From a virus (Duplodnaviria; Heunggongvirae; Uroviricota; Caudoviricetes), in IMG/VR virus record IMGVR_UViG_3300035698_015309: DNA of 64,000 bases. One strand, written 5' to 3'. Made by a program: the position numbers and the translations under genes. Below, one piece after another: positions 9,213 to 49,745 of the stretch (position 1 is its first letter; each line of letters starts with the position of its first letter). Below the pieces are notes generated by a model. The model had not been told where the DNA came from. It worked only from the letters and a program-made list of their open reading frames with translations, and made no database searches.

Positions 9213-9281
9213 ACCAGTGTCCATCAGCGAACCGCCTGTTCACCACCTGGATCATTGCAGCCTGAGCCATCTCGTCCGTAG
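7773..9281 (+). CDS. tnpB: TnpB (RuvC-like RNA-guided nuclease). Stop codon lost (TAG->CAG in the RE hairpin) giving a ~23-aa read-through into the flank.
   Basis: RuvC-I LGVDVGLNV, RuvC-II VFVVEDLDL, YTSQECPSCG...CRSCG zinc finger, HAD RuvC-III. ~90% identical to the tnpB at 50373. Confidence 0.85.
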   Translation: MKCRIFRLHKDTNRSKIDKLEALHKAYVKYVRICVQTMLNQQTLNLPKAAKQTFFPRATDLTSQIEKIARDHAIQIVSAWAKATYARKLKPTITNLKHDGTLTDQDAKALCVIGLKSISKPWEFITQDHLDAYHTLLDTYGGNKPIVRDNLPMRLSEMTARLEDTTKAPLGGFWLRVSSLEARKSVWLPLVGNPYIQQADQVNKGISARKTKKGFWRFEAVSKAEWTIPEAQEDWPKLGVDVGLNVLAATSDGVTYGEHVKPKFDKLYARVRNLRANRQRQDLKDNSPKLDHLESKLSGLIKTETGRVVNTLIVRHPETVFVVEDLDLRGCRGQKRFAYRALQTNLERKAPTEKVNPAYTSQECPSCGYIHRGNRSSIRFHCRSCGRKAHADWVGSSGVLRRSEDEHIKAGDHPRGVKRVLRERFRVKRTSSLGFGRKEQPSFEPLPLGQRLTTVGSESFGSGTASNLMPVTFQQVLRNGTSVHQRTACSPPGSLQPEPSRP

Positions 9282-9982: not shown

Positions 9983-10004
9983 CTGTGTGTATAGGGGGGG
10001 ACAG

Positions 10005-12365
10005 ATGCCCAACTGGAACCGAATAGCCCACAGCGCCAGCAAAGTAACCGGCAAGGTCCAAACGATGGTGGAACATCTGTTGGGGGTTGAAGCGCTGACT
10101 CTCCGTTTCCTGGGCACCCACTTCCCACCCCAGCACGTCAGAGAGGTTTCTTTCGCCAGCCGGGGGCATGACATCGGCAAATACAGTCCCCTGTTCCCTG
10201 ATGTACTGAACGGGGTAGCCCGAGGGGTGCTGGATCATTCCTCACCTGGAGCCTGGGTTGCTTACGACCGAGGATCCCTCCTCGCTTCCCTGTTGATCGC
10301 CGGACACCATAGGGGTCTGCCGGATTTCTCACGCGTCTATTTGGGGTGTGTCCTACGCCCCTCTGCACAGCCGATGGGTAGCGGGACTCATCCTAACCCC
10401 GGTGTCTTCCATGTCTATCCGGGGCCAGCGAAAGACTTGTTGGTTCCCCTACGTGAGGATGGCATCGAGCTTCCTGAAATCAATATAAATGATGATGAGA
10501 CCTTCTTTTCTTTTTCTGAACTGGTGAAAGGCTGGCAGTTGTCCATTGCCAAGGGCTTGGATGTCCGAATGGCCTTTTCTGCGCTCGTTGACGCCGACTT
10601 CCTGGACACCGCCGAGCACTTCAAACCAGGGCGCACCTGTCCCAACCCCCCGTTGGACGCCGGTCTCGCCCTTGACGTTTTGAACAAATACATCGACGGC
10701 CTCAGTGCCAAGAGCAAACGCAGCGATGGTGCTTCCCCTGTGGTGCAACAGGAACGGGACCGTCTACGACAGGACTGCCTCAGAGCCGCCCAGGGGCCTC
10801 CAGGACGCATTTTGACCTGTACAGCCCCCACCGGTGTAGGCAAAACTCTAGCGCTGGTCTCGTTCGCCCTGGCGCACTGTCAGGCCCACCAACTTAAACG
10901 GGTGATCATCGCTGTACCCTACAAAAGCATCATTCAACAGACGGCGAAAACCCTGAAGGAGCTTTTCAAGGACCGGGCCTTCGGTCCCCACTTTGTGTTG
11001 GAGCATCACACGGACGCCACGCAGTGGGTCGAAGAGGAGGATCTCCAACAGGATGGTAGATCAAATGAGATTGACCGACGAGGGCTCACTGAAAACTGGG
11101 ATGCACCAATCATCCTCACCACGAACGTTCAACTATTGGAGTCCTTGTTTTCCAATCGGCCAGGGAGATGCCGGAAACTCCACAACATCCAGGACTGCGT
11201 GATCATTTTTGATGAGGGCCAGTCTTTGCCCAGCCACCTTATGCTCCCCACAATAGCAATGCTCGACCGACTCAGCCGTCAGTATCAGGTCACGGTGGTG
11301 TCTGCCACGGCCACCCAGCCTGCCTTCCAGAGCATCCTGCCTCAGGTAGAAACACTCGTGGGGGAACCGCTCCAGCCCTACGAGGAGATTGCCTCCGCCC
11401 CCGTAGCCTCGGCCAAGGCGATGGTCCGCAACAAGTTTCACTGGCCGCACAACGACGACGAGAGGTGGACCTGGGCGCAGTTGGCTGACCGGGTGTGTTC
11501 GGAAAGGATGTCAAACCTCGTGCTTCTCAACAGGAAGGACCATGCGGAAGCGGCCTGGAGGGAAATACAGACACGGTGGGGGGCGGATCGAGCTATCTAT
11601 TTGACTTCCAACCTGTGTCCAGCCCACCGGAAGGGGCTACTCAAAGAGGTGGTTCGTCGGTTGAAGACCGTTGGGGACTACTTCGTTCTGGCAGCTACTC
11701 CTTGTGTGAACTCAGGGACGGACTTCGACTTCAACAGGGGCTTCCCGGCCATGGGACCGTTGGATGGGACGGCACAAACCGCTGGGCGGGTAAACCGGGA
11801 GGGCTTGCGGGTACTAGGGGACATCTTCGTTTTCCGCCCGGACGTTGAATACAAGGACATGTTCCCGCATGACGAGTGGTTCCAGGCTGCTGCCCGGATC
11901 ACGGAGCGGTTCCTCCGGCGCTACGGACAACGTCTCGACCCGACGAACCCGGAAATCTTGACCCAGTACTATGAGGCCCTCTATCGGGAAGCAGGGCTAG
12001 ATCACCCGGCCACCAAAAAGATCATCGAGGCGTACCAGGAGGGTTCCTTCGAGAAGGTCAGTCGACGCTACCGGGTCATTCCCGACAAAGGGGTCCAGGT
12101 CGTCGTTCCCTACCTGGAAGGAGGGTGTGGGGAGCAGTACAGGAAACTCAACAAGGAGCGGCCCACCCGGAAAAGCTTCCGGATGTGGATGAACCGAGCG
12201 GCCCTGCTATCGGTCTCTGTTCTGTCACTGAAGAAGGATCACCCCCTCTGGCTCAGCCTTGACCCCGTCACGCTGAAAAGGAAGGACGGCTCCATCACCG
12301 AAACGGGCTGGTACATCTGCACTGACCCAAGAGCCTACCACCCGGAACTTGGGCTGGTGCAATGA
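10005..12365 (+). CDS. cas3: Cas3 (HD nuclease + SF2 helicase)
   Basis: HD motifs (HDIGKYSPLF, IAGHHRG). Walker A CTAPTGVGKT. DEAD-like IFDEGQS. Start ATG 10005 after a GGGGGGG RBS; the listed GTG at 9987 lies inside the promoter motif. Confidence 0.9.
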   Translation: MPNWNRIAHSASKVTGKVQTMVEHLLGVEALTLRFLGTHFPPQHVREVSFASRGHDIGKYSPLFPDVLNGVARGVLDHSSPGAWVAYDRGSLLASLLIAGHHRGLPDFSRVYLGCVLRPSAQPMGSGTHPNPGVFHVYPGPAKDLLVPLREDGIELPEININDDETFFSFSELVKGWQLSIAKGLDVRMAFSALVDADFLDTAEHFKPGRTCPNPPLDAGLALDVLNKYIDGLSAKSKRSDGASPVVQQERDRLRQDCLRAAQGPPGRILTCTAPTGVGKTLALVSFALAHCQAHQLKRVIIAVPYKSIIQQTAKTLKELFKDRAFGPHFVLEHHTDATQWVEEEDLQQDGRSNEIDRRGLTENWDAPIILTTNVQLLESLFSNRPGRCRKLHNIQDCVIIFDEGQSLPSHLMLPTIAMLDRLSRQYQVTVVSATATQPAFQSILPQVETLVGEPLQPYEEIASAPVASAKAMVRNKFHWPHNDDERWTWAQLADRVCSERMSNLVLLNRKDHAEAAWREIQTRWGADRAIYLTSNLCPAHRKGLLKEVVRRLKTVGDYFVLAATPCVNSGTDFDFNRGFPAMGPLDGTAQTAGRVNREGLRVLGDIFVFRPDVEYKDMFPHDEWFQAAARITERFLRRYGQRLDPTNPEILTQYYEALYREAGLDHPATKKIIEAYQEGSFEKVSRRYRVIPDKGVQVVVPYLEGGCGEQYRKLNKERPTRKSFRMWMNRAALLSVSVLSLKKDHPLWLSLDPVTLKRKDGSITETGWYICTDPRAYHPELGLVQ

Positions 12366-12459
12366 AAAAGTCTGCGGACAGGGGTTCCTTTTGCGACTTC
12401 ATTGAGTAGTAAGAAGTGCCGCCGAAGAAACTCGGCTGGATAAACAGACGGAGGGACAG

Positions 12460-13131
12460 ATGAAAAAAGGTATGCTGCACGGGTTGGAAGTGTGGGGGGA
12501 CAATGCCTGCTTCTCCCGCCCAGAGGTGACGGAGCGGACCACCTACCCCATCCCAACCCACTCAGCCTGTCGGGGGATCTTCGACGCTATCTACTGGAAA
12601 AGGTCCGCCAACTTCTACTGGCAGATCGTCGGGGTAGAGGTTGTGAACCCGATCCGGTACATGGGGATCATGCGGAACGAGATGAAAGACAAGGTCACCC
12701 GCCGCACTCTTCAGGTTGATCTTACAACCCAGAAGCACCGGACCCAAAAGCACACCAGGACTCTCCTGGACCCCCGGTACCGCATCTTCGCACGGGCGGT
12801 CTGCCGGAATCCTGATGGGAACACCAACGCCATCGACGCCCAATTCCGTCGTCGGGCGGAGAGGGGCCAATGTTTCCACCAGCCCTTCTTAGGTTGCAAG
12901 GAGTTTATGGCCAACTTCCAGCTTGTCCCGGTGGATGAGCATGATCCATCACAGGGACTCGCAGACCTTCAGGTGGACGTGGGGGTGATGGTCTACGACA
13001 CCTTCAATCTGCTGGTGCCCGATGGAGATCCTTCGGTCAGCGTGTTCCACGCACAGATCAAGGATGGGGCCGTGGCCTACCCGGAGTTCACTGATAGTGC
13101 CGCCGTGTTCCGGCCAGGGGGTGCAGCATGA
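12460..13131 (+). CDS. cas5: Cas5c (Cas5d) type I-C pre-crRNA endoribonuclease subunit
   Basis: 223 aa directly after cas3. GLEVWGDNACFSRPE...YWKR resembles Cas5d N-terminal blocks. ATGA overlap with cas8c. Confidence 0.8.
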   Translation: MKKGMLHGLEVWGDNACFSRPEVTERTTYPIPTHSACRGIFDAIYWKRSANFYWQIVGVEVVNPIRYMGIMRNEMKDKVTRRTLQVDLTTQKHRTQKHTRTLLDPRYRIFARAVCRNPDGNTNAIDAQFRRRAERGQCFHQPFLGCKEFMANFQLVPVDEHDPSQGLADLQVDVGVMVYDTFNLLVPDGDPSVSVFHAQIKDGAVAYPEFTDSAAVFRPGGAA

Positions 13132-14960
13132 GTGGTATCGGACAGAGCCTCCTCAACTATGCCGCACACTATATGCCCCAGCAGGCTCCGGTGGGGTACG
13201 AGTACCTGACCGTCGTGGAAACCGTAGTGTGCCTGACCCCGGACGGGAAGTACCAGGACTGTCACCTCAGGGACACCAAGACGGCCTCCCCGATCCTGAC
13301 ACCTCGGGTGCCCTCCAATTTGCTCAGGGCCACGCCCCCCAAGACTCACTTCTTCATCGGGTATGTCCCCCAGGTGTTCCCTCTCCTCGTGGCCGAACCG
13401 CACGACAACACCAAGAACGAGGTGAAGAGGGGCCTCTTCCTGGAGCAGATCAGAACGGTCATCAAGGAGGTTCCCTGCACTCGGAAGTACCTGACCCCCA
13501 TCCAGACCTTCCTGGAGGACGACGAGCAGGTCGCCCTTGTGGTTCAGGCTCTGACGAAGATGGAGGCAGACCTCAAGCGGGCTGTGATCTTCCAGACCGA
13601 GGGGAAGAAACTCGGCATCCCGTTCCAGGACAAGAAGGAATGGCGGGAGTGGTGGGCGACCTACCTTTCAGGAGCGGACAAAAAGAAGAAGACCAGCGAT
13701 AAGACGTTCCGCTGCGTCGTCACCGGGGACGAGATCACGAACCCCTGCCGCATCCATCCTGACGGCATTGCCTTCGGCACAACGAAGACGAAGCTGGTTG
13801 CCGCCAAGCAGACCTCCAGTCACCACTATGGCCAGGAGTCTGGCCTCGTTGCTCCGATGTCAGACCAGACGGCGAGCACAATGACCCAGGCTCTGGTTCA
13901 TGCCGCCCAAAACGCCGGGACGGCCTTTGGGGATCTTCGAATCCTTGTGTGGGCTTGTTCCAGGGGAGAAACCCTTACGGGGAAGGCTGGACTGCTGGCG
14001 GGCCAAGGGCCGGTTCTTGAAGGGGGCGAGTGGACCCAGATCCTGTCCGACGTTATGTCCGACCTCTTGAACTCGGGATTGACGGATGGGGAACTCCGGG
14101 GTGCCACCCGGAAGGTGAAGGAATACCTGGACACGGGCACCGGACCGGGAGGTGTCCTAGACATGGACTGCACCTTGGGCATCGTTTCTAGCAACGGTCC
14201 CCGGTTGGCTGTCCGGCACTGGGAGACTGGACCCCTGTCCGTCCTGTTCAAGAACATCTATCGATGGTATCAGGATATGACCATCAGCAACAACCGCAAT
14301 GACACGGGGATCGCCCGCCTTTCTGCACTCTGGCAGATCCTTTCCGCTGTCAACGGCCCAAGGGGCAAAGCTTCCGAACTGGAGCGTGAGATGCTCGTTC
14401 AGGTAGCCCTGCGGGGCCAGTCGGTCCCAATGAGCATTGTCAAAAAGGCCCTGGTGCAGTTCCGGTCACAGTTGCACCTGTCCATCAAACCGTCAACCAA
14501 CATGGGGATCGCTCCGGCATTGCCGGGAATCCTCAAAACCTTCATCAACAGGAGAGGGAACACCATGTGTGAAGCAGGATTGAACAAGGACCACCCGAGT
14601 GTGGCGTACCAGTGTGGGCGGTTGTTGTCCGTCCTGTCCGAACTCCAGAGCCTCGCCATCGGTGGGAGGAACCCCCCGATGGCCCTGGCTGCTCAGTTCT
14701 CGTCCGCAACGATGCAGAACCCGGCCCGTGCGCTGGCCCGGTTACTGCTCCGTTCCGAGAAGCACGTCAACAAGCTCGTCCGACAGGGAAAGGGATGGGC
14801 GGATCACAAACGGCAGGAGATCGTCGACCGCCTGCCCACAGACCTTCCGACCCGCCTCGGCATCGAGGATCAAGCTTTGTTTGCCATGGGGTTGCTCCAC
14901 CAGCGCTCGTCCTGGAAGAAGCAGGACAAGCCCGCAGGGACACCCCCGATTAAGGCATAG
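13128..14960 (+). CDS. cas8c: Cas8c (Csd1) large subunit
   Basis: 610 aa between cas5 and cas7 in canonical I-C order. Size typical. No closer motif recognised by eye. Confidence 0.75.
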   Translation: MSGIGQSLLNYAAHYMPQQAPVGYEYLTVVETVVCLTPDGKYQDCHLRDTKTASPILTPRVPSNLLRATPPKTHFFIGYVPQVFPLLVAEPHDNTKNEVKRGLFLEQIRTVIKEVPCTRKYLTPIQTFLEDDEQVALVVQALTKMEADLKRAVIFQTEGKKLGIPFQDKKEWREWWATYLSGADKKKKTSDKTFRCVVTGDEITNPCRIHPDGIAFGTTKTKLVAAKQTSSHHYGQESGLVAPMSDQTASTMTQALVHAAQNAGTAFGDLRILVWACSRGETLTGKAGLLAGQGPVLEGGEWTQILSDVMSDLLNSGLTDGELRGATRKVKEYLDTGTGPGGVLDMDCTLGIVSSNGPRLAVRHWETGPLSVLFKNIYRWYQDMTISNNRNDTGIARLSALWQILSAVNGPRGKASELEREMLVQVALRGQSVPMSIVKKALVQFRSQLHLSIKPSTNMGIAPALPGILKTFINRRGNTMCEAGLNKDHPSVAYQCGRLLSVLSELQSLAIGGRNPPMALAAQFSSATMQNPARALARLLLRSEKHVNKLVRQGKGWADHKRQEIVDRLPTDLPTRLGIEDQALFAMGLLHQRSSWKKQDKPAGTPPIKA

Positions 14961-15020
14961 TCTCTAATGGCCTAAGGTGGGCCTTAGAGTTGGATTAGGC
15001 ATAAAGTGAGGAGAAGTATC

Positions 15021-16031
15021 ATGAAGGATCTTTTGATGTGGCTGAAGAGTGGGACGGCGGCAATCGGATACAGGTTCGAGATCTTGTTCCTGTTCGATTG
15101 TCTGATGGGGAATCCCAACGGTGACCCCGACTTCGGCAACCTGCCCCGGACCATCCCGGACACGGGACACGGGTTCGTCACCGACGTCGCCATCAAGCGG
15201 CGTCTCCGCAACTACGTGAGTCTCCGCAAGGCAGGCAAGACCCCGTACCAGATTTTGCTGATGATGAACACCTGTACCAACAGGCTCATCGCCAAGGCCC
15301 ACGAGGACTCCCACGGGACCGTCCCGGCGAAGGCTACCAAGCAGGAGGAGCGGGCGGCGGGTGACCGGATGTGCCAGGACTATTGGGATGTCCGCACCTT
15401 CGGCGGTGTTCTCAACACAGGTGCCAAGGCGGGCCAGATTCGTGGACCCGTCCAGGTGGTGAGTGCCCGGTCCCTCGATCCGGTATCCATCCAGGAGATC
15501 ACCATCACCCGCATGACCGACACCAAGGGCTCCCCTGATCCCAAGAAGGTCAAGACCCCCAAGGATCAGGGTTTCTCCTCCGCCCAGTGGCAGGAGTATG
15601 AGGACGGGGCCGAGGCGGCGGCTCTCCGCACGATGGGAACCAAGGCGATCATCCCCTACGGTCTCTTCGCTGCCAACATCACGGTGAGCGCTTTCGTGGC
15701 GGAACAGACGGGCTTCTCGGCGGAGGATCTGGCCCTGATGATCGAGGGTCTGGAAAACATGTACGACCATGATCGGACCTCCAGCAAGGGTTTGATGACC
15801 TGTCGGGGCATCTACATCTTCAAGCACGTCGGGACGGCGGACGACCCCGAAGAGCGGGCACAGCAGGCCAAGCTCGGGTGCGCCCCGGCCCATAAGCTGC
15901 TGGACAACGGACGCATCGTGACTGTGGTCAAAAAGGACGGGGTAGAGGCCCCGATGTCCTTCGACGACTACACTGTCACCGTGGACGAGTCCAAGCTCCC
16001 GGAAGGTGTCGAGTTCCGGGCCATCCAGTAA
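15021..16031 (+). CDS. cas7: Cas7c (Csd2) backbone subunit
   Basis: MGNPNGDPDFGNLPR signature near the N-terminus. AGGAG RBS before ATG 15021. Last cas gene before the leader and array. Confidence 0.85.
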   Translation: MKDLLMWLKSGTAAIGYRFEILFLFDCLMGNPNGDPDFGNLPRTIPDTGHGFVTDVAIKRRLRNYVSLRKAGKTPYQILLMMNTCTNRLIAKAHEDSHGTVPAKATKQEERAAGDRMCQDYWDVRTFGGVLNTGAKAGQIRGPVQVVSARSLDPVSIQEITITRMTDTKGSPDPKKVKTPKDQGFSSAQWQEYEDGAEAAALRTMGTKAIIPYGLFAANITVSAFVAEQTGFSAEDLALMIEGLENMYDHDRTSSKGLMTCRGIYIFKHVGTADDPEERAQQAKLGCAPAHKLLDNGRIVTVVKKDGVEAPMSFDDYTVTVDESKLPEGVEFRAIQ

Positions 16032-16227
16032 GGCCCTTTGCGAGCGGTTCCGTGGCGACGAAAACCCCGGAGTCGCTCGCAACCCAGAAAACCCCGTGAT
16101 CTGGGGTCGTTATACCGCAGCCGTTCTTTGATAACCGAACCAAACGGCTTGAAAAGTGACGGTTGGGAAGGACCGCTCGCAAAGGGGGCGGGAAAGCTGC
16201 GTCCCACAACGGTTTGCGAGGGGCACT

Positions 16228-17418
16228 GTCGCATCCTCTAACAAAGGATGCGTGGATTGAAACAGAGAGTACGTGCAGGCGTCCAGCGGGCTCAAGCCAA
16301 CGGAAAGTCGCATCCTCTAACAAAGGATGCGTGGATTGAAACGTTACTGCCCGCATGACACCCCGGATGAGATCACCAGTCGCATCCTCTAACAAAGGAT
16401 GCGTGGATTGAAACACTGTGGACCTGGCGGGGAAGAAGCCGACCTATGGTGGTGTCGCATCCTCTAACAAAGGATGCGTGGATTGAAACTTTCAAACAGC
16501 GACCCAGTCGAGTGCGACTTGGTGGGTGTCGCATCCTCTAACAAAGGATGCGTGGATTGAAACAAGTGCCTCGCCGTCAAGGATCCAGAGGGGAAGCTGA
16601 AGTCGCATCCTCTAACAAAGGATGCGTGGATTGAAACAGGCCCACAGAACGGCTCCCACGGCCTGGGGACGCCGTGTCGCATCCTCTAACAAAGGATGCG
16701 TGGATTGAAACGCTCAGAGGACTGCTCGACGGGACAAGACGGTCTTCCTCGTCGCATCCTCTAACAAAGGATGCGTGGATTGAAACTCGAAGTTGGGCGA
16801 AATCCAGGAATGACGGTCACAAGTCGCATCCTCTAACAAAGGATGCGTGGATTGAAACAATCCGATGACACTTCCCTTTCCTGTCCGCCCTTGGAGCGTC
16901 GCATCCTCTAACAAAGGGTGCGTGGATTGAAACGAGATCCCCCTTGCGACTCCCGCCCTGAAGGCGCTGGCGAAGTCGCATCCTCTAACAAAGGGTGCGT
17001 GGATTGAAACGTAAGCGAACTCCACCCCTGGTCCGTGGGTGACCGGTCGCATCCTCTAACAAAGGGTGCGTGGATTGAAACGCAGTGAGCCAGCGCCCCA
17101 CGAGCCATGCCTGCCTTACTGTCGCATCCTCTGAAAAAAGGATGCGTGGATTGAAACTAAATCCGATTTACGGGGAACTGGCTGGTCGGCTCACGTCGCA
17201 TCCTCTAACAAGGGGTGCGTGGATTGAAACGCTGATTCGGACTGATCCCTGAGAAGGCGCAACCCTGCCGTCGTACCATCTAACAAGGGGATGCGTGGAT
17301 TGAAACGAAACCGCAGCGAGGCAGAAGGGGTCACTCCCTCACGGGTGTGTGGATTGAAACATTAGGGTAGTAAGTGTAGACAACCTCGTCGTTCCCATGA
17401 GGGGGCGTGGATTGAAAC
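16228..17418 (+). CRISPR. Type I-C CRISPR array: 15 well-conserved 36-37-nt repeats (GTCGCATCCTCTAACAAAGGATGCGTGGATTGAAAC) plus 2 degenerate terminal repeats. Spacers 35-43 nt. Leader at 16035-16227.
   Basis: Repeat starts 16228, 16307, 16379, 16454, 16528, 16602, 16676, 16751, 16823, 16898, 16975, 17046, 17121, 17195, 17270; degenerate ends at 17360 and 17418. Distal repeats carry GGATGC->GGGTGC/GGGGTGC variants. Repeat ends in the I-C-typical GTGGATTGAAAC. Confidence 0.95.
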
Positions 17419-22514: not shown

Positions 22515-23078
22515 ATGAGCCTCACACTAGAAGACCTCCAAGATCACAAGAAGGTCAGTTGGGATACCTTCCGTTCGGTGCCGCTCGGGTTGCACGAAGG
22601 GGAGGAACTGGAGATCCGGTTCCTGCTGAACAAGGCTGGGGAGCACAAAATCGGCCTGTTTGACCCACGGCGCCACTGGTGGTCGGTGTGCTCATCCACT
22701 ACGGAGGAAGCGGACGCAGTTGTCAGCTTCAACGCCATCCTTGGTGCCGTCCCTACCCCGCTGCAAAGGAAAACCATCACCTTCCAGTCTGAGGGGGACA
22801 GCAAACCGGATTTCGAAAAGGGTGAGGATGAGGTCGTCAACTACCACCTCACCCTGTACGGCATGTTCGTTGGCAATCTCCGAGTCGGCAAATTCCAGGG
22901 TCAGGTAGAGCACTACGACACGATACTCTTCCCCGAATCAGCGCAGGACGATGCCGCCTATCAGATGCAGTACGGACAGCTTGTGCTCGCCTGTTACGAG
23001 TTCGTGCGGGGCCTCTACGACGCCCACGCTGCCGCTGCCCTTAGCCCCGTGGGATCATCTCCGGCACCCACAGAGTAG
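22515..23078 (+). CDS. hypothetical protein. C-terminal ...GSSPAPTE* is encoded by the intergenic motif.
   Basis: AAGGAG RBS. Stop codon is the TAG of GAGTAG. Confidence 0.45.
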   Translation: MSLTLEDLQDHKKVSWDTFRSVPLGLHEGEELEIRFLLNKAGEHKIGLFDPRRHWWSVCSSTTEEADAVVSFNAILGAVPTPLQRKTITFQSEGDSKPDFEKGEDEVVNYHLTLYGMFVGNLRVGKFQGQVEHYDTILFPESAQDDAAYQMQYGQLVLACYEFVRGLYDAHAAAALSPVGSSPAPTE

Positions 23079-27323: not shown

Positions 27324-27631
27324 AAGTCTTGGCCGTGTTCCAGCATGTCACCTATGCACACCTTCAAGCGGCTAACTTCCTCGGTGTTGCCGCAACACCC
27401 GAAGCGGCCAAAGCCATCATGCAGAAAGACATCGACGCATTGGTGGCTGACGGTGCCACTCTGCACAAGGTAACTGCTGAGGCCACTCCCAACAAGGCCA
27501 TATGGGCGGAGCGGCATGAGCAGCAACTTGGTCTGGACCCCAGCGATTTACTCGTCCTGAACGCCGATGACCACAACGTGTGTCACGTTGCCCAAGAGTT
27601 TGAGTTAGAAGGTTGGGTACCTGACGCTTAA
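27320..27631 (+). CDS. hypothetical small protein
   Basis: ATGA-coupled to the upstream gene. Confidence 0.4.
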   Translation: MKVLAVFQHVTYAHLQAANFLGVAATPEAAKAIMQKDIDALVADGATLHKVTAEATPNKAIWAERHEQQLGLDPSDLLVLNADDHNVCHVAQEFELEGWVPDA

Positions 27632-27704
27632 GAAGGAAGGGATCATCTCACCACCCTGTTGAGTAGTCCAAGTGAGGGGCAAACGTCCCCTGGGAGGCTC
27701 ACCG

Positions 27705-28094
27705 ATGGACATGCAAAAGTTTGTAGGGAAACCCTGCACCGTGTACGAGTGGGTGGGAGAGATGGAGTGGCAGCAGGAGGGATGGAGCCAGGGGGGGCCT
27801 CTCCCCGTCCCGTGGACTGTCACCACGGCGGAAGAAGGCGGTCAGCAAGCCCCAGAAGTGCGGAAGGCTGTCGGGGTCATCCGGGAGTGTTCCCTCATGG
27901 GGGACAACCCCCGACTGCTGTGCATGGTGGAGTTGTCCGATGGCACCCTCTGGCGAGGGGACTCTCAGGATCACAACTTTGACATTGAGTTAGAGAAGGG
28001 AGCGGACGGGAGTCTGACGCTGACGTGGGGAAGCCCCGATGGAAGCGACACGCTGTGGAAGGACCTGTGGGTACACATCCCCGCTGCCTACTAG
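27705..28094 (+). CDS. hypothetical protein
   Basis: Motif plus hairpin plus GGGAGG upstream. Confidence 0.4.
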   Translation: MDMQKFVGKPCTVYEWVGEMEWQQEGWSQGGPLPVPWTVTTAEEGGQQAPEVRKAVGVIRECSLMGDNPRLLCMVELSDGTLWRGDSQDHNFDIELEKGADGSLTLTWGSPDGSDTLWKDLWVHIPAAY

Positions 28095-28180
28095 GAGCAC
28101 GACAAAAAGGGATCATCTCACCGACCTGCTGAGTAGTTAAAGTGAGGGGGCAAATGACCCCTGACAAGGAGACCAACGCA

Positions 28181-28813
28181 ATGAGCAACCCTCAGATAGA
28201 TACCCTGGTCAAACGGATCGCCGCCGCTCGGGACGCTTATTACAACGGCTCCCCCATCATGACGGATGTGGTTTACGACGCCCTGGAAGATCAGCTTCGA
28301 GCGCTCGACCCCAAGCACCCGGAACTCCTCAAGGTCGGTGCAGCCCCCGCCCCGGTCAAGGGTGCATGGCCGAAGGTCCGGCACAGCATCCCAATGTCCA
28401 GCCTGAACAAGGCCCAGGTCGAAACGGATCTGGCTGCGTGGTTCGCCTCGGTGAGCAACGCCGATGTCGCTGTGATGGACAAACTTGATGGTATCTCGTG
28501 TTTTGATGGGGCTACCCCACTGCATCTGGCTAATGGGGAAACTGTCCCCCTTCAAGAGGTCGTAGAAAAGGGACTGATGCCCCAAGTTTTAACCTGGGAT
28601 CCTGAAAGGGGGGTCACCACTGAACAAGTCGTGGCCGTCAAAGACAACGGCATCAAGGATAACTGGGTTCGGGTTACCTTTGAAACGGATCCCCTGCATC
28701 TGGGATCCTCTGTTGTGGTGACTGAAGACCATCTCTTCTATGTCAAGGATAAAGGGTGGGTTGAAGCTAAAGATCTCACGGGTGAAGACGTGCTTGACTG
28801 TACCGAACAACCC
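28181..28813 (+). CDS. ligA: NAD-dependent DNA ligase N-terminal fragment (adenylation-domain start through the KxDG lysine) fused to an N-terminal split-intein half (IntN, 28499-28813)
   Basis: MSNPQIDTLVKRIAAARDAYY...VMDKLDGIS then CFDGATPLHLANGE... (Hint block A). Stops after ~105 aa of intein. An alternative start at 28154 is in frame. Confidence 0.75.
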
Positions 28814-29837
28814 TGATAGTTTAGACCCCAGGATACCCCATCTAGCGGGTGTCCTGGGGGGCCTTATGTTATTAGGGGACGCTTGGTTTGTTGAACATTT
28901 CAGGAAAACCAGAAAACGGGGTAACACGATAGCTGGTCGTCAATGGACCTTGCGAGTAAAGCAAGAAAAACCTGTCCTGACAAAAATTTGTGACCGCTGT
29001 GGACATAAAGAGATCACCTTATCGAGTCCATTATCTCGGGTTCGGCACGTGGTTAAACAAGCTGTAGAACAGGAACAGAAGTGGGGTCTGCATCTTTGCC
29101 CCAAATGTGCTCGTAAGGAGGCACGCAAAAAGGCAGCTATTACGAGAGCAACGCCCGGATGGAGTGAGAACTTTGGTCGTCAAGTAGCTTTGGGTCTGGC
29201 TTTAATACCGTCAGACAAAAATGCAGAACGATATGAAAGAGCACGTCAAACCCGTATTGCCACCTATTCCCGCATGACACCGAAGGAACGACGCAGAGGT
29301 GTCGTCAAGCAATGGCAAACAATGACGGAGGAGGCTAAACAACGGAGAGCAAAAAAAATAGGCGAGGGTGCCAAAAAAGTTTGGGCCTCATTAACGCCAG
29401 AACAAAGAAACCAACGGGTTGCTCGGATGATCAAGGGGCTCCCTCGATCAAAGATATCGGATGATTTTCGACAACATCTGATAGATGCGAGATTGTATGC
29501 AGGCTTTGTAAGTGAACAAGTCATTTCAGGTTTCACCGTTGATGAGGCTAATGAGACCTTGAAAGTGATCCTTGAGTTCTTTGGGGACTACTATCATTGT
29601 AACCCGAGTAACCCCAAATTCTCAGACCCTGAGTTCTACAACACAACAATCCGAATGACATCGGCCCAAAAATGGCAGTATGATCGCCGTCGTTTAGCGG
29701 GACTCAGAAAAGTAGGGTACCGTATTCTAGTGGTATGGGAAAGTGACTGGCGTAAAAACCCTGAAGATGTGTTGAGCAGAGTGCGGACATTTCTGAATCA
29801 GTTTAAAACGGGATCATCTGCGGACCCCACAGAGTAG
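28740..29837 (+). CDS. free-standing endonuclease between the ligA halves; C-terminal Vsr/DUF559-like nuclease domain. Start uncertain (overlaps the IntN end).
   Basis: FFGDYYHCNP...QKWQYDRRRLAGLRKVGYRILVVWESDW. Frame differs from both ligA halves. Ends in the ...GSSADPTE* motif. Confidence 0.55.
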   Translation: MSRIKGGLKLKISRVKTCLTVPNNPDSLDPRIPHLAGVLGGLMLLGDAWFVEHFRKTRKRGNTIAGRQWTLRVKQEKPVLTKICDRCGHKEITLSSPLSRVRHVVKQAVEQEQKWGLHLCPKCARKEARKKAAITRATPGWSENFGRQVALGLALIPSDKNAERYERARQTRIATYSRMTPKERRRGVVKQWQTMTEEAKQRRAKKIGEGAKKVWASLTPEQRNQRVARMIKGLPRSKISDDFRQHLIDARLYAGFVSEQVISGFTVDEANETLKVILEFFGDYYHCNPSNPKFSDPEFYNTTIRMTSAQKWQYDRRRLAGLRKVGYRILVVWESDWRKNPEDVLSRVRTFLNQFKTGSSADPTE

Positions 29838-29868
29838 ACCTAGTGACGGTCATCAAACGAGGTCTACA

Positions 29869-31734
29869 ATGCGAGTTGCATCCGTTGAGAAAGTACCGGG
29901 ACCCAGAAGAGCCTTTGATCTGACAATCCGCAATACGTCCTGTTACTTTGTGGGGCCTGGAATTTTAGCACACAACTGTGGGATGAGATACGAAAACAGG
30001 AAGCTAGTGCAGGCGCTGACACGGGGCGACGGGACGATAGGCGAGGATATCACCCGGAACGTCCTGCTGATGAAGGGTGCAGTCAAGGTACTGCCCCCGA
30101 CGTTACCGGATGGCACCCCCACCCCAGACGATGTGTGGGTGCGGGCCGAGGTTGTGGTGACCCACGATGACTTCGTCACCCACTTCAAGGGCGAATCCAA
30201 CCCCCGTAACACGGCGAGCGGCACTGCGAAACGTCAAACTGACAACAGCAAATGTGCCTTCCTGACGGTTATCTGCTATCAACTCCTGCCCGGTGGTCGC
30301 CCGATGGCGTCCAAGAGCGCCGAGTTGAAGGCCCTGGCCACGATGGGCTTCCAGGTACCCCGCTGGGGTGAGTACAAGGGACTGGCAGCAGTGGAGGCCC
30401 TCTACCAGGACTACATCGCCACCGTCAGGAAGAGCCTGGGTTACGATATCGACGGGCTGGTGATCGAGGTGGCTGACGCCAACGCCCGTGCGATGCTTGG
30501 GGAACTGAACAACCGCCCCAAGGGTGCCTGCGCTTATAAGTTTCCTCATGAGTCCAAGCCGACCACGCTGCGGAGCATCCGTTGGCAGGTAGGCAACAGC
30601 GGGCGCATCACCCCGGTGGCCGAATTTGACGTTGTGAACCTCGCAGGGGCGAACGTCAAACAGGCGAGCCTTCACAACATCAGCAACATCGAAGGGCTGT
30701 GGGGCAAAGCCACTGTTCCGGTACCCGGCGACGCAATTCTCGTTTCTCGCAGAAATGATGTTATCCCCTATGTAGAGGAAGTCCTGAACAAGTTCGGTAC
30801 AGGCACGGGACTCCGCACCCCGACCCAGTGCCCCTCCTGCCAGGGAGCCTTGGTGCGGGACGGCGAGTACCTTGTGTGCCGCAGCGAGGAGTGCCCCGCC
30901 CAGGCAACCGGGGCCATCAGACGCTGGGTCAAGAAGCTCGGTGTCCTACACGTTGGCGAGACCCTGATCGACGCAATGGTGGATGCGTTCCCTTTCACCC
31001 TCACCGAGGAAGTGTTTGAAGTCACCTTCGGCGTAAAGAAGGATGACGTGAAGACCCTCCCGGCAGCGGATCAGGAACGGATACGCAACGCCCCAATGGA
31101 CATCGCTGACCTCTACAACCTGGACCTGGACGAGGTCGCCTCCCTGGAGTTGAGCGGACGGCGTGTCGGCGGCTCGGCGGACAAAGCCCTCAGGAACCTT
31201 AACGCCAAGAAGACGCTGCCCCTGCACGTCCTGATAGGGAGCCTGGGTATCCCCCTGATCGGGCGCAGCATGGCCAAGGTGGTTGTGGACGCTGGATACA
31301 CCACCCTGAACCTGCTCTTCAAGGCCAAGGTGCATGTTCCCATCGTCACCAGGGGCAAGACCCTCCCGGCAGTTGCCAGCATCCCTGGAATGGGGGACAC
31401 GAAAGCGCTGGCCTTCGTGACGGGATTTGCTGCCAAGGCCGGGCTGATCGTCAAGTTGCGGGCCACGCAAGACCTTGGCGGAGCCGACATCACCATCCAG
31501 GACATCTCCGGGCCGTTGCTCGGGATGACCTTTTGCCTGACTGGCACCCGTGAACCCGCCCTGCTCGATGCTATCGAAAAGGCGGGTGGCACAATGAAGG
31601 GCAGCGTGTCCAAGAAACTATCCTACCTGATCGCCCTGGACCCGGACAGTACCTCGGGCAAAGCGAAAAAGGCCAAGCAGTACGGCGTGAAGGTGATCGG
31701 CTTGGACGAGGCGTACAAGCTGGCGGGGGTGTGA
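29869..31734 (+). CDS. ligA: C-terminal split-intein half (IntC, 36 aa, ...FVGPGILAHN) fused to the remainder of NAD-dependent DNA ligase
   Basis: Own motif plus RBS plus ATG. HN|CGMRYENRKLVQALTRGDGTIGEDIT continues LigA. C4 zinc finger CPSCQ...CRSEECPAQ and a C-terminal BRCT region present. Confidence 0.8.
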   Translation: MRVASVEKVPGPRRAFDLTIRNTSCYFVGPGILAHNCGMRYENRKLVQALTRGDGTIGEDITRNVLLMKGAVKVLPPTLPDGTPTPDDVWVRAEVVVTHDDFVTHFKGESNPRNTASGTAKRQTDNSKCAFLTVICYQLLPGGRPMASKSAELKALATMGFQVPRWGEYKGLAAVEALYQDYIATVRKSLGYDIDGLVIEVADANARAMLGELNNRPKGACAYKFPHESKPTTLRSIRWQVGNSGRITPVAEFDVVNLAGANVKQASLHNISNIEGLWGKATVPVPGDAILVSRRNDVIPYVEEVLNKFGTGTGLRTPTQCPSCQGALVRDGEYLVCRSEECPAQATGAIRRWVKKLGVLHVGETLIDAMVDAFPFTLTEEVFEVTFGVKKDDVKTLPAADQERIRNAPMDIADLYNLDLDEVASLELSGRRVGGSADKALRNLNAKKTLPLHVLIGSLGIPLIGRSMAKVVVDAGYTTLNLLFKAKVHVPIVTRGKTLPAVASIPGMGDTKALAFVTGFAAKAGLIVKLRATQDLGGADITIQDISGPLLGMTFCLTGTREPALLDAIEKAGGTMKGSVSKKLSYLIALDPDSTSGKAKKAKQYGVKVIGLDEAYKLAGV

Positions 31735-32357
31735 CGATGGGTGAGGTCGTACCAGGACCAGGGACGCTTCAGTTTGCGCTGGACAGCATAAATGATCCGG
31801 TGTTGCAAAAGGTTAAGGACCAGCAGCCCCTCACCCCTGAAGACCAAAATCATCTGAGGGAAAAGATGGGGCTTCCTGGTCCTGAGCATGTGCCTTGGGG
31901 TCATGGCCCCTGGAAACGGGACGACCCGGATATGCTCGCCCTTGATTATTTGAAGGACACTACGGTTTTTGGCTCCTGTGATAAGGAGACAGATGAATAC
32001 CTGGAGAACACAATCTGGGAGTGGTACCGAGGTGTGAGACTCGCATTCCAAGAGTGTGGGTGCCAAAACTGCATGCAGATTGGAGAGGCAAAAACGATGA
32101 CAGCGCCCGCTGCAATTGCCCGTGGTGAAAGGCACTACGCAGCCGTAATGAACAAACGCCTGCCACGGGGGTGGAGAAAACAGCCTAAAGTGCTGGCCCT
32201 CATTGCCAAGTTTGACCAGGAACTGAAGGCAGCAGGCAACGATCTCATGCGGACGGCACGGGGGGACAACTACGCTGGGGATACAGCACCTGAGGCAACC
32301 GGGCCAATCGGAAAGGAATGGACCCTTCGGGAATGGCCTCGGGAGTACAGTTGGTGA
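31731..32357 (+). CDS. hypothetical protein; paralogue of the gene at 33031 (VPGPGTLQFA..., CGCQNC)
   Basis: ATGA-coupled to ligA. Confidence 0.45.
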   Translation: MTMGEVVPGPGTLQFALDSINDPVLQKVKDQQPLTPEDQNHLREKMGLPGPEHVPWGHGPWKRDDPDMLALDYLKDTTVFGSCDKETDEYLENTIWEWYRGVRLAFQECGCQNCMQIGEAKTMTAPAAIARGERHYAAVMNKRLPRGWRKQPKVLALIAKFDQELKAAGNDLMRTARGDNYAGDTAPEATGPIGKEWTLREWPREYSW

Positions 32358-32968
32358 TGAACACTGAGGCTACAAACGTCACCAGCCAGTGGTTGGGACA
32401 GAACTGGCAGACCTTTCAGGAAGCGGGACATTACGGTCTCCGTACCTGGGCGGTGCCCATCCCTTCAAGTGATGTGGAGGACGTGATCCAGGACACGGCC
32501 ATACAATTCATTCATGTCGATGCTCTTCGCTTCTTCATTCACCGGGAAGGGGAGGAACTGAAAAGCTCTCTGACCTTAGACCGACTAGGTCTGTTTATAG
32601 CCCGTAAGGCCATCAAGTGGCTCCAACGAGCCGGTCAAGACGTAGTTCCCCGTAGCAGCCTGGGGGCACAGACAAAATGGGAGTGGCAAGGCAAAACCAC
32701 AGCACCACAGCCGCCCACATCGTATGAAGTGGACCCGTCGAACAGCCAATGGACAGCGGGTTGTCAAATGGAGCTTGTGGAGTCCGTTTGCACTCAGATC
32801 TTTCCGGACAACGCTGAACGGTACGTGGCTATCATCAAACGAAGGGTTGAAGGTTACAGCCAGACTGAGATAGCCGCAGAGTTCGGTTCTACTAAGGGTC
32901 GGATCGGTCGTGTTCTCCAGCGTGTTCGTCGGGAGTTTCAGCCCTTCCGGGAGGCCCTTTGCAGTTGA
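32357..32968 (+). CDS. sigma-70-family-like protein (region-4 HTH: YSQTEIAAEFGSTKGRIGRVLQRVRREF)
   Basis: C-terminal r4.2-type HTH. ATGA overlap with the upstream gene. Confidence 0.45.
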   Translation: MNTEATNVTSQWLGQNWQTFQEAGHYGLRTWAVPIPSSDVEDVIQDTAIQFIHVDALRFFIHREGEELKSSLTLDRLGLFIARKAIKWLQRAGQDVVPRSSLGAQTKWEWQGKTTAPQPPTSYEVDPSNSQWTAGCQMELVESVCTQIFPDNAERYVAIIKRRVEGYSQTEIAAEFGSTKGRIGRVLQRVRREFQPFREALCS

Positions 32969-33030: not shown

Positions 33031-33654
33031 ATGGACAATGTCATACCAGGGCCGGGCACGCTTCAGTTTGCCTTTAACCAGATGAAGGATCCGCTGGATC
33101 GGAAGTTCATTGACCACCCGGAACTCGTCACGGACGAGGAAATAAAGGAGATGGCCGCTCGGTTGCCTGGAGGTAAAGGCCATCACACTTGGCCCGAAGG
33201 TCCCTGGCAGCGGGAAGGGCTTGACCTGTTTGATATGATCATCGCAAACTTCAGTGATGACATCCTCAAAAACCCCATCAACCCAGACAACCTCGATGAT
33301 GAGGATGCCTTGGAATACACGATCAGTCAGTGGTACTTGGATGTTCGCTTTGTCTTTCGTCCTTGTGGTTGTGGGAACTGCGGGGATGCCGGGGATGCCG
33401 TAACGTGTATTGTCCCCGAGGCTATTACTCGGGGAGAACGAAGATTTGCTCCCATCATGAACAAATACCACACAAAGGGATGGCGCAAACACCCCAGAGT
33501 ACTTGCCTTCATTCGACAATTTGACGGCGAATTGGAGGCAGCGGACTGGGACCTGATGAAAACCAAACGATGGCATGAATACGCCTGCTCATCGGCACCA
33601 CTTTTGACGCACCGTTGGGCCAATTGGTCTCTCCAAGAATGGCCCCGGCAATGA
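33031..33654 (+). CDS. hypothetical protein; paralogue of 31731 (IPGPGTLQFA..., CGCGNC)
   Basis: Motif at 32964-32990. ~40% aa identity to 31731 by eye. Confidence 0.45.
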   Translation: MDNVIPGPGTLQFAFNQMKDPLDRKFIDHPELVTDEEIKEMAARLPGGKGHHTWPEGPWQREGLDLFDMIIANFSDDILKNPINPDNLDDEDALEYTISQWYLDVRFVFRPCGCGNCGDAGDAVTCIVPEAITRGERRFAPIMNKYHTKGWRKHPRVLAFIRQFDGELEAADWDLMKTKRWHEYACSSAPLLTHRWANWSLQEWPRQ

Positions 33655-39485: not shown

Positions 39486-39671
39486 ATGGAGCCCATCCTT
39501 CTGACTATCAACGAGGTTGCCCGTTTGTTCGGGATGCACCCAAATTCGATCCGTAAACTCATGGGCGATGGCAGACTACCCTTTCTTAAGATCGATAAGT
39601 CGCTGCGGTTCGAAACTGATGCCGTGATGCTATTTATTGAGAAACTCAGGAAACAGAGAGCGAAGGATTGA
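39486..39671 (+). CDS. MerR/excisionase-type HTH protein (IS607 TnpA N-terminal-domain-like)
   Basis: INEVARLFGMHPNSIRKLMGDGRLPFLKIDKSLRF. GGGAGAA RBS. Confidence 0.55.
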   Translation: MEPILLTINEVARLFGMHPNSIRKLMGDGRLPFLKIDKSLRFETDAVMLFIEKLRKQRAKD

Positions 39672-41067
39672 CGTCTTGAAAGTCACTCGCATTCTTCAGG
39701 CAGATGTTCCGCCTGCTTTGTTGCAGGTGTGTCGAGCTACCAGATTTCTTCGTGCAGATGTCTGGCGTCGGTACGGTGCCCTGAAGAACGTGGGTAAAAG
39801 TGCCTTGGCTATCCGTAAAGAAATTGTAGCAGGTGGCATCTACGTCACTCTCGCCATAGACGGGACCATACGTAACGAAACAACCAAAGATGTCGTGAAC
39901 GACATCCTGTTCTACAAAGCAGCAGCGAAAGGAAAGGTTCGCAAAGCCATTTGGCAGCGCACCGACAATGAAATGGAACGCAAACGACTCTACACGCTTC
40001 TGCGATCAGACGCATGGATGGAGGATCCCTTCCTTCACCGCCAAATGCGTAAACACTTCAAGCACGGCGTCTCACACACGAAAAATCAGTTTATCGTGAG
40101 GTCCGACAAATTCAAAATAGAGCACGTTAATGGGTATCTGACGATCGTCATCCAAATTGCCCGTAAATACGGTGACGACATAGTTCTAACGACAACGTCA
40201 AACGGCACGAGTGTGGATCTGAGTAGCTGTAACCTACGCATCATTGTGAAGGGTGGTACAACTGAGATCCACTACAGCGTGGATAAAAGCAGTGGGCGTC
40301 CGCATGGTAGCCGGACGCTGGGCGTTGATAAAGGCTACACCGAAGCATTTGTTGATTCGGATGGTGAGCATCAGGGTGAGCAGTTCGGTGCTGTGATGAC
40401 TGAGTACAGCGACAAGGTCAGCAAGACGGGTTCCGCTAGAAACAAGTTGTACGCCCTAGAAAAAAAGCATCGTCAAAGCGGAAACTCCAGAAAAGCTGAC
40501 AACATCAGGGCACACAACCTTGGGTGTAAAAAGATTGATGCTCGTAAACGATTGGCTCAAACACGACTACGGGGTGTAGCCTTTAAGGCTGCTCATGCCA
40601 TCGTGGATAAGGCAGCGGTGGTCGTGTCAGAAGACTTAACCTCTCCGATCGCAAAAAAGCGACCTTGGAAAAGGTTTAATAGAAGAATGAGTGGCTGGGC
40701 AAAGGGAGCACTTGCTGAGGCCCTCGATTCAGTTTGTACGCAGCGTGAAGCCAGCCATGAGTTGGTAAACTGTGCTTACACATCGCAAATGGACTCTGTA
40801 ACGGGTTTGCTGCAAGGCAAGCGTGTTGGAGACAAATTTTACCGTATTAACGGGGATGTTATTCAGGCCGATCACAATGCTGCGCTGAACGTGTTAGCCC
40901 GGTTGTCTGACAAGGACATCGGGTGTTTCACCCCTTATCAAGAGGTAAAACGCATCTTGTTGGCACGTTCTCCGGCGGAACTGACCGTCAAAAGGCACGA
41001 GTTGCAGTCGAGAGGCTCTCAACCGTGTGCGGATAAACCCTCACGATCAGGAGTGATCAATGCTTGA
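39637..41067 (+). CDS. TnpB-like RuvC nuclease lacking the zinc finger (start uncertain)
   Basis: RuvC-I LGVDKGYTE, RuvC-II VVVSEDLTS, YTSQ then no CxxC, RuvC-III IQADHNAALNV. Confidence 0.6.
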   Translation: MRNSGNRERRIDVLKVTRILQADVPPALLQVCRATRFLRADVWRRYGALKNVGKSALAIRKEIVAGGIYVTLAIDGTIRNETTKDVVNDILFYKAAAKGKVRKAIWQRTDNEMERKRLYTLLRSDAWMEDPFLHRQMRKHFKHGVSHTKNQFIVRSDKFKIEHVNGYLTIVIQIARKYGDDIVLTTTSNGTSVDLSSCNLRIIVKGGTTEIHYSVDKSSGRPHGSRTLGVDKGYTEAFVDSDGEHQGEQFGAVMTEYSDKVSKTGSARNKLYALEKKHRQSGNSRKADNIRAHNLGCKKIDARKRLAQTRLRGVAFKAAHAIVDKAAVVVSEDLTSPIAKKRPWKRFNRRMSGWAKGALAEALDSVCTQREASHELVNCAYTSQMDSVTGLLQGKRVGDKFYRINGDVIQADHNAALNVLARLSDKDIGCFTPYQEVKRILLARSPAELTVKRHELQSRGSQPCADKPSRSGVINA

Positions 41068-49538: not shown

Positions 49539-49745
49539 ATGAAACGAACCATGATCGTCCGAGTGACCACAACCGAATTTGAAACGTCTGATGGACGGGT
49601 GATCCCACACCCCATTCCGTTTGATCCCGATGAGGTGCCTACCGTCGAAGAGTTCCAACAACAGTACAACAGGTGGCGCAAGGTCTTTGAAGATCAAGGA
49701 CTGGTGTTTCCCATACCTGATGCGGGAGATGAGGATGCTGACTGA
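49539..49745 (+). CDS. hypothetical small protein. 3' end overlaps the tnpA start and may be truncated by, or part of, the IS607 element.
   Basis: Hairpin CCTCCAC-N9-GTGGAGG embeds the RBS. Confidence 0.3.
   Translation: MKRTMIVRVTTTEFETSDGRVIPHPIPFDPDEVPTVEEFQQQYNRWRKVFEDQGLVFPIPDAGDEDAD

Follow-up and report, generated by a model that had tools for sequence, protein, structure and literature searches.

A phage ligA gene fractured by putative split-intein halves around a free-standing Vsr-like endonuclease gene

The 64,000-nt stretch of phage DNA analyzed here (the window; IMG/VR record IMGVR_UViG_3300035698_015309, Caudoviricetes) carries, between positions 28181 and 31734, a gene for NAD-dependent DNA ligase (ligA) that is broken into two open reading frames (ORFs) with a third gene between them. 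All three lie on the + strand, in frames 2, 0, and 1, respectively. The first, ORF A (28181–28816), encodes the N-terminal 106 amino acids (aa) of LigA (the N-extein; 28181–28498), comprising domain Ia and the adenylation motif KLDG; they end in ...VMDKLDGIS and are directly followed by 105 residues, CFDGATPLHLANGE...VVVTEDHLFYV...CTEQP, which resemble a split intein's N-terminal part (IntN; 28499–28819) and run into two consecutive in-frame stop codons, TGA TAG (28814–28819). The last, ORF C (29869–31734), is preceded by a ribosome-binding site (RBS) read from the sequence (GAGG, 29859–29862), 6 nt ahead of its ATG. It begins with 36 residues, MRVASVEKVPGPRRAFDLTIRNTSCYFVGPGILAHN (MRVASVEK...FVGPGILAHN; 29869–29976), which resemble the C-terminal intein part (IntC), and continues with CGMRYENRKLVQALTRGDG... 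into the remainder of LigA (the C-extein; 29977–31734), that is, 585 aa from the cysteine at position +1, comprising the rest of the nucleotidyltransferase domain, the OB domain, the Zn finger, and the HhH and BRCT domains. The gene in between (28866–29837) is free-standing and encodes a predicted Vsr-like (EDxHD) homing endonuclease of 323 aa; its ATG lies 49 nt downstream of the stop of ORF A, and its own stop codon 31 nt upstream of the IntC ATG. Thus, ligA is cut directly after KLDGIS of the adenylation lysine motif, the next LigA residue being Cys (KLDG-IS|C). The whole putatively mobile insert, that is, IntN, endonuclease gene, and IntC (28499–29976), comprises 1,478 nt; this number is not divisible by three, so that no single frame can run through it. 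It is low in GC (0.45–0.50 across ∼28500–29980 versus ∼0.62 in both ligase parts). An earlier reading made from the letters of this DNA (the sequence-only reading) had proposed the break after KLDG-IS, an IntN of ∼105 aa stopping at 28816, a 36-aa IntC at 29869 ending in FVGPGILAHN ahead of Cys and the continuation of LigA, and three ORFs in three frames. All of the elements it named were confirmed to be present, with matches beyond chance.

The two outer ORFs were aligned to LigA profiles, a check that had been suggested along with that reading, and they behaved as parts of one protein. On NF005932 (NCBIfam), residues 5–106 of ORF A matched model positions 2–115 and residues 37–615 of ORF C positions 116–660, that is, the second match resumes exactly where the first one ends. 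When spliced in silico, LigA gave a single alignment with the same profile (residues 5–685 with positions 2–660 of 664, E 6e-106). The N-extein also matched positions 1–109 of TIGR00575, and positions 8–119 of PHROG 3869, on which the C-terminal part resumes at 122. The domain set of LigA is present (Ia, nucleotidyltransferase with KxDG, OB, Zn finger, HhH, and BRCT); among the Pfam domains, DNA_ligase_aden (7e-32), OB (1e-18), and BRCT (3e-7) were matched, and Nlig-Ia and HHH_5 weakly so, while KLDG and CPSC...C..EEC can be read in the sequence itself. Because the break places the catalytic lysine and the remainder of the nucleotidyltransferase domain on separate fragments, neither of the two could ligate by itself.

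Both intein parts were recognized by dedicated profiles above their cut-offs, again as the proposed check had foreseen: TIGR01445 (intein_Nterm) matched residues 107–188 of ORF A over the full model (1–83 of 83) with 28.0 bits (cut-off 24.5), and TIGR01443 (intein_Cterm) matched IntC with 19.1 bits (cut-off 15.6). Cys1 (C107 of ORF A) directly follows the N-extein, block B reads T-E-D-H, and IntC ends in ...ILAHN|C, that is, in His-Asn followed by Cys+1. In an alignment (A2) of seven intein alleles, which are 51–69% identical to the intein of the window, C1, T75-x-x-H78, the block-F Asp (D122), H140-N141, and C+1 (C142) are invariant; the IntC of the window is 83% identical to that of locus L002. 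IntN is acidic (net charge −12, isoelectric point 4.3) and IntC basic (net charge +3, isoelectric point 10.0). A profile built from the fused intein halves of seven loci matched the Npu DnaE split intein (4kl6) with E 8e-12 over positions 5–134 of 135, and, of the other solved inteins, the RecA mini-intein (4e-9), NrdJ-1 (1e-4), and gp41-1 (2e-4). When the fused intein was compared with the PDB using phmmer, designed PPR proteins ranked first; they were discarded as a spurious match of a 17-residue repeat to EVVEKGLMPQVLTW, and the genuine intein matches ranking below them were confirmed by the profile search. The best reading of these sequence features is that the insert encodes a naturally split class-1 intein, which would act by trans-splicing.

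The middle ORF remains open back to 28740, and the gene had initially been placed at 28740–29837. Its start is most likely at 28866 instead, because 17 of 17 full-length homologs begin with MLxGxxW at the equivalent of this ATG, which yields 323 aa, and because the public gene call for an identical protein (P0001) has the same length; ATG 28740 was ruled out by the starts of the homologs. With the start at 28866, the 77-nt overlap with IntN is probably not coding. The DUF559/Vsr-like nuclease domain seen in the sequence-only reading was borne out by conserved active-site residues and a fold model matching Vsr. Pfam covers just the C-terminal 45 residues, where PF04480 (DUF559) barely exceeded its cut-off (21.0 versus 20.6 bits); PF18741 (MTES_1575) remained below its own (27.3 versus 38.2). 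Invariant in the 17 homologs are D226, E237, G240, D241, H244, C245-N-P, D273, R276, and W291-E292, and D226, E237, H244, and D273 are spaced as D51, position 62, H69, and D97 of Vsr. An N-terminal CxxC...CxxC is also conserved among them. HMMER, when run against the PDB, found Vsr weakly (the alignment spanning residues 281–340) and did not reach 3r3p. The alignment-based AlphaFold2 (AF2) model of the endonuclease had a mean predicted local distance difference test (pLDDT) score of 88.4, and its C-terminal domain was matched by Foldseek to 3r3p (template modeling [TM] score 0.77, probability 1.00), the DUF559 protein 3hrl (0.82), and Vsr (1cw0; 0.61), with E-values of only ∼3e-3. Its N-terminus was modeled as a β-hairpin carrying CxxC...CxxC plus ∼10 helices. 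Sequence and predicted fold are, thus, best read as those of a Vsr-like/EDxHD homing endonuclease with a putative nuclease activity and target.

The 49-nt spacer ahead of the endonuclease gene contains a stem-loop of 13 bp (28826–28859, + strand; minimum free energy −29.8 kcal/mol, z = −3.8), the 3′ arm of which enters the G-rich, Shine-Dalgarno-like stretch before the ATG. Comparable hairpins, with the Shine-Dalgarno sequence inside the 3′ arm, are found at loci L003 and L015. Translation of the endonuclease is probably weak, as the hairpin lies over its RBS. A second type of signal, the bipartite motif GGGATCATCY-N12-GAGTAG, is present in 17 copies in the window (0 expected), co-oriented with the genes. 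An RBS and a start codon usually follow 35–50 nt on, the motif often being succeeded by a small GGGG-caaatga-CCCC hairpin, RBS, and ATG, and in several copies TAG doubles as the stop codon of the upstream ORF. One promoter-like copy, GGGATCATCT-N12-GAGTAG (28109–28136, + strand), is situated upstream of the N-terminal half of ligA. Another (29810–29837, + strand) lies inside the endonuclease gene at its 3′ end, with TAG as the stop codon of that gene; the IntC ATG follows 59 nt from the start and 31 nt from the end of this copy. The motif in this position also occurs in L002 and, as a one-base variant, in L008; further examples in the window are located at 3264–3291 (− strand), 23051–23078, and 56291–56318 (both + strand). 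To judge from its sequence context, the motif probably serves as a promoter or gene-junction signal specific to this genome, and the copy embedded in the endonuclease gene may be a promoter that gives the downstream half of ligA its own transcription. Of the promoter motif, RBS, and ATG initially ascribed to ORF C, the RBS and the ATG stood, while a convincing σ70 site was not found, as a scan of 27900–32000 for σ70 promoters and intrinsic terminators gave results at or under chance level; the genome-specific bipartite motif is present instead. GTGACG-16-TACAAT was rejected as the ORF C promoter because it overlaps the IntC ATG. A one-mismatch motif copy at 28702 (GGGATCCTCT) was considered as the promoter of the endonuclease gene; its second box, GAAGAC, is a poor match. 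Downstream of ligA, the ORF at 32318–32968 (+ strand) shows a weak σ70 region-4 helix-turn-helix (HTH) match (E 9e-4); it could encode a σ-like factor of the genome's own and, as such, is a candidate for recognizing the repeated motif. The ORFs flanking it (31731–32357 and 33031–33654) look paralogous, both holding ...PGPGTLQFA....

Relatives of the ligA locus were found in IMG/VR, and the identical sequence occurs on contigs of ∼0.5 Mb. At least 24 contigs carry the exact 211-aa ORF A, including its stop; 16 measure 0.2–1 Mb, such as JGI Ga0208769_1000001 (528,260 bp), and the gene calls again run 211, 323, and 621 aa in order. A 12.3-kb ENA contig (L007) is 99.98% identical to the window over 12,309 nt, with two mismatches and no gaps. 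Thus, when it was considered whether single-base indels might restore one continuous ORF, the finding that had been named as speaking against a split intein, these contigs offered none. The three-ORF plan recurs at the identical ligA site in L002, L003, L004–L006, L008, L009/L010, L013, L014, L015, and L016. The intein-bearing lineages number approximately nine and are diverged, with ligase identities as low as 35–39%. Among the relatives, the endonuclease gene follows IntN at a distance of +49 to +55 nt, −7 nt, or as a fusion, and IntC follows the endonuclease gene at +31 to −29 nt (in L003, L014, and L015, the 3′ end of the endonuclease gene overlaps IntC by 4–29 nt), and in each lineage IntC begins at the canonical split point with an ATG of its own. 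The nonsynonymous divergence (dN) of IntN, IntC, and the endonuclease was 0.12–0.47 while synonymous divergence (dS) was saturated, which allows just the qualitative statement that dN is well below dS; this difference indicates purifying selection on all three. In a search of 5.8 billion proteins with the fused intein as the query, which is sensitive only to relatives sharing 5-residue words, no LigA with a contiguous intein was found, just seven N-terminal fragments of 196–244 aa. Megablast of positions 27500–32500 gave no match in the phage collection, that is, no annotated close relative. Among the GTDB species genomes, the element was found in metagenome-assembled scraps only and in no isolate bacterial genome, which ruled out a cellular origin.

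Some of the relatives depart from the plan seen in the window. In the relative represented by L004, L005, and L006 (e.g., L005 3645–7784), IntN reads in frame into the endonuclease, forming an ORF of 530 aa (P0012). This relative has a second break in ligA, past the OB domain and ahead of the Zn finger, which is caused by a gene for a TnsA-like nuclease and is accompanied by only ∼10 extra residues per side and, thus, by no intein. In L003 and L015, the C-terminal ligase domains are on a separate ORF. On a short contig, L094 (2724–3130), ORF A and the endonuclease gene are identical to those of the window, yet the gene called after them begins ∼140 nt downstream of where IntC should start; this shift may reflect either gene calling near the end of the contig or a variant.

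An allele without the element was found in an IMG/VR relative (L001), where ligA is uninterrupted and the insert precisely absent (...AAACTTGACGGAATTTCG|TGCGCTATGCAC...). The junction of this allele reads KLDGIS|CAMHYFDRK at the protein level and, thus, has a native Cys at position +1, which means that excision would leave no scar. Its DNA (...AAACTTGACGGAATTTCG|TGCGCTATGCACTATTTTGAC...) is a candidate cleavage substrate of the endonuclease. Over 3.9 kb on the downstream side of the insertion point, the DNA of L001 and that of the window are 95% identical, as opposed to 79% upstream, which parallels the dS values between the two (0.83 in the N-extein, 0.23 in the C-extein). This step in divergence, the drop in GC, and the precise empty site are signatures of a mobile element. 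The eight codons past the junction specify CG[ML]RYENR in the window and L002, and CAMHYFDR in the empty L001; this difference could reflect co-conversion of the flanks, an endonuclease target that has been lost, or co-adaptation of extein and intein. Directly upstream of its intact ligA, L001 carries a gene for a GIY-YIG endonuclease (341–1237) which ends in GGGATCATCT-N12-GAGTAG, and a similar gene is present in L002 (3310–4200); different endonucleases, thus, hold neighboring slots around ligA in related genomes.

Arrangements of this kind were described as "fractured genes" by Dassa, London, Stoddard, Schueler-Furman, and Pietrokovski (Dassa et al, 2009; Nucleic Acids Research 37:2560; PMC2677866) for eight host enzymes, among them DNA ligase, with a single locus from Lake Gatun. 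Thus, the arrangement as such and its name have been known since then, as have the family of Vsr-like endonucleases involved and a DNA ligase example, and the novelty implied in the sequence-only reading was overrated. The window locus shares with those fractured genes the order on one strand (N-extein-IntN, a short spacer, a free-standing endonuclease gene, and IntC-C-extein), the Vsr-like endonuclease, control elements that travel with the endonuclease gene, and a phage DNA-metabolism enzyme as the host protein. The dimensions agree as well: the spacer is 27–51 nt in the loci of Dassa et al and 49 nt here, IntN 88–105 and 105 aa, and IntC 33–54 and 36 aa, respectively. A hairpin before the endonuclease start, as found here, is present in 15 of their 16 loci, and the authors tie such hairpins to the translational repression of phage endonuclease genes (Dassa et al, 2009). 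There are also differences. The endonuclease gene and IntC overlap in 15 of the Dassa loci whereas a gap of 31 nt separates them here; as this overlap is frequent and not defining, its absence does not exclude the window locus from the fractured genes. The control element at the downstream end is a copy of the genome's own repeated motif and not a T4-type late promoter. The ligase locus of Dassa et al is one partial read assembly, encodes a Felix 01-like ligase, and is followed by a gene for a 5′–3′ exonuclease; downstream of ligA in the window there is an unrelated ORF of 208 aa. In the later literature searched, no LigA split intein is described, while the topic is an active one, with actinobacteriophage inteins that are associated with out-of-frame or Vsr-like endonucleases.

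Two characterized systems resemble the parts of the element. I-Bth0305I (PMC3239194; PDB 3R3P) is a site-specific EDxHD/Vsr-like homing endonuclease with which the window protein shares the predicted fold of the catalytic domain (TM 0.77) and a bipartite build with a putative N-terminal DNA-binding region. It differs in that its gene lies inside a group I intron in recA, whereas the window protein is encoded by a free-standing gene within a split intein in ligA and has the CxxC...CxxC plus a long helical array at its N-terminus. The Npu/Ssp DnaE inteins are the best profile match of the intein halves, with the same split point, similar sizes (102/36 versus 105/36 aa here), Cys1 and Cys+1, and, for Npu DnaE, similar net charges (−11/+3 versus −12/+3). 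Their halves, in contrast, are encoded at distant loci without an endonuclease gene in between, while in the window ∼1 kb separates the two, which share a strand; the inteins also differ in host protein and insertion site, and the block-F His of DnaE is Ser in the window.

We consider it very probable (roughly 85%) that this ligA is a fractured gene, in which the halves of a split intein surround a free-standing Vsr-like endonuclease gene occupying the canonical position of endonuclease insertion. Two polypeptides would then be made, LigN-IntN from the motif at 28109, and IntC-LigC from the embedded copy at 29810. The acidic IntN (−12) and the basic IntC (+3) would associate electrostatically and fold into a HINT domain, and trans-splicing would join ...KLDGIS to CGMRYENR..., leaving a scarless LigA of 691 aa; ligase function would, thus, depend on the reassembly of both fragments. 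The endonuclease, in turn, would cut intein-less ligA alleles, like that of L001, in co-infecting relatives, and repair off the element-bearing genome would copy the whole module, together with flanking extein sequence, into the broken allele.

Several observations weigh against this interpretation. Splicing, target cleavage, and promoter function are inferences, as opposed to the anatomy, the family memberships by sequence and fold, the conservation, and the empty site, which are observed. The His of block F found in most alleles (THCYF) is Ser in the window and L002 (NTSCYF); this residue is not invariant in the family, yet its exchange could slow splicing. The Pfam Hint profile scored 19.9, below the gathering score of 29.7, and a single-sequence AF2 model of the fused intein halves had a pLDDT of only 38.8. 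Spliced LigA remained slightly below the NCBI equivalog cut-offs (NF005932, 355.4 versus 369; TIGR00575, 404.9 versus 444.45), although scores of this kind, combined with end-to-end alignment, are as expected for a diverged phage LigA. Finally, between lineages, intein and endonuclease have diverged about as far as the ligase (52–63% versus 53–62%), so that recent or active homing is no more likely than long vertical co-inheritance.

This last point leads to the view that splicing works while the element is a fixed, vertically inherited relic, with an endonuclease that no longer homes into ligA and is kept for another role, for example, excluding or recombining with co-infecting relatives. In addition to the parallel divergence of intein, endonuclease, and ligase, it would account for the finding that all 17 placeable full-length homologs sit in ligA at this one site, and the step in divergence at the insert would fit nuclease genes as reported markers of recombination boundaries (PMC10448857). 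It is at odds with the existence of an intein-less allele in a close relative (95% nucleotide identity over the adjoining 3.9 kb), as the differing flanking codons of that allele mean that targets are available in nature. Furthermore, the catalytic residues of the nuclease are invariant, and the low GC content suggests that the insert has not been fully ameliorated to the host genome. We regard a relic of this kind as unlikely.

Another idea, which we regard as rather improbable, is that in a whole clade of very large phages the module has long been a stable, co-inherited component of ligA and is exploited for control. As the C-terminal half has its own copy of the motif, the two halves could be expressed on different schedules. 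If so, active ligase would form only when both halves are present, so that the locus would work as an AND gate built naturally from a split intein; intein-less competitors in a co-infection would be the main target of the endonuclease; and P0012-type fusions and the relatives with a twice-broken ligA would be living intermediates of the entry of endonucleases into inteins.

It is also conceivable that the intein halves no longer splice and serve only as a high-affinity dimerization module, or that they cleave without ligating, so that LigA would be a non-covalent two-chain enzyme or non-functional. Fracture without splicing has precedents: in NrdA of phage Aeh1, as reported in PMC3045599, and at an SbcD-like locus described by Dassa et al (2009), an essential gene of phage DNA metabolism is divided by a nuclease gene into two ORFs on the same strand, without an intein. 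The second ligA break of L004–L006, after the OB domain, is a fracture of the same kind, and the Ser in block F of the window allele would also agree with a loss of splicing. The break in the window differs in that a complete split intein is present on both sides, so that covalent repair rather than mere subunit assembly is to be expected. Moreover, C1, TxxH, the block-F Asp, HN, and C+1 are all invariant even though the alleles differ at 31–49% of their positions, which would be unexpected if only binding were selected. The break also interrupts the nucleotidyltransferase fold itself, at a distance of three residues from the catalytic lysine and not at a domain boundary, so that a retained HINT lump of 141 residues would probably be disruptive. 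These arguments make a loss of splicing very improbable compared with the fractured gene being repaired by its intein.

Three frames inside 3.5 kb (as could come from indel errors) and the ORF ahead of 28866 that is open to 28740 and overlaps IntN might point to a pseudogene with frameshifts, or to a contiguous intein with a nested endonuclease that was distorted by errors of assembly or sequencing. This reading is effectively refuted by the exact ORF A and its stop on at least 24 contigs, the gap-free L007, the double stop after IntN, the nine diverged lineages that retain three ORFs with differing spacers or overlaps and a separate ATG for IntC, the purifying selection on every part, and the search of 5.8 billion proteins, sensitive to relatives sharing 5-residue words, in which no contiguous-intein LigA turned up, so that the preference of the sequence-only reading for a split intein plus a separate endonuclease over a pseudogene was upheld.

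Phage structural genes were not encountered among the ORFs of the window that were scanned. The surroundings of ligA comprise a type I-C CRISPR-Cas module (9987–17011) with cas3 (9987–12365), cas5 (12460–13131), cas8c/Csd1 (13128–14960), cas7 (15006–16031), and a CRISPR array (16528–17011) with the 36-nt repeat GTCGCATCCTCTAACAAAGGATGCGTGGATTGAAAC; no adaptation genes of this module were found among the ORFs scanned. Three TnpB-like genes (Cas12f1-like TNB, OrfB_IS605) are located at 7773–9281, 39637–41067, and 49621–51797, the third being preceded by a gene for an IS607-type serine recombinase with a MerR-like HTH. A PARP-like protein with WGR, PARP regulatory, and PARP catalytic domains is encoded at 5070–6617 (− strand); the product of a gene near the fractured ligA of a 436-kb contig (L014 6991–8550) resembles it at the N-terminus, as judged by eye only. 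A free-standing HNH/endonuclease VII-like nuclease of 452 aa (3739–5097, + strand), matching several PHROG endonuclease families, is a candidate for another homing endonuclease in the same genome. A phage of very large size is the most probable origin of the DNA.

For annotation, the finding means that the two ligA halves should not be labeled as pseudogenes. While the 2009 description contained one partial ligase locus, the window provides a complete example of a fractured gene in LigA, with matching alleles. Its intein is a candidate split intein of DnaE-like size and charge, with Cys1, Cys+1, and a native S|CG junction, and possibly an orthogonal tool for protein ligation, and its endonuclease is a candidate new member of the sparsely characterized EDxHD family, for which a putative target sequence is at hand. 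With approximately nine intein-bearing lineages, an empty site, and an IntN-endonuclease fusion, the proposed origin of split inteins by endonuclease invasion becomes testable on a single gene.

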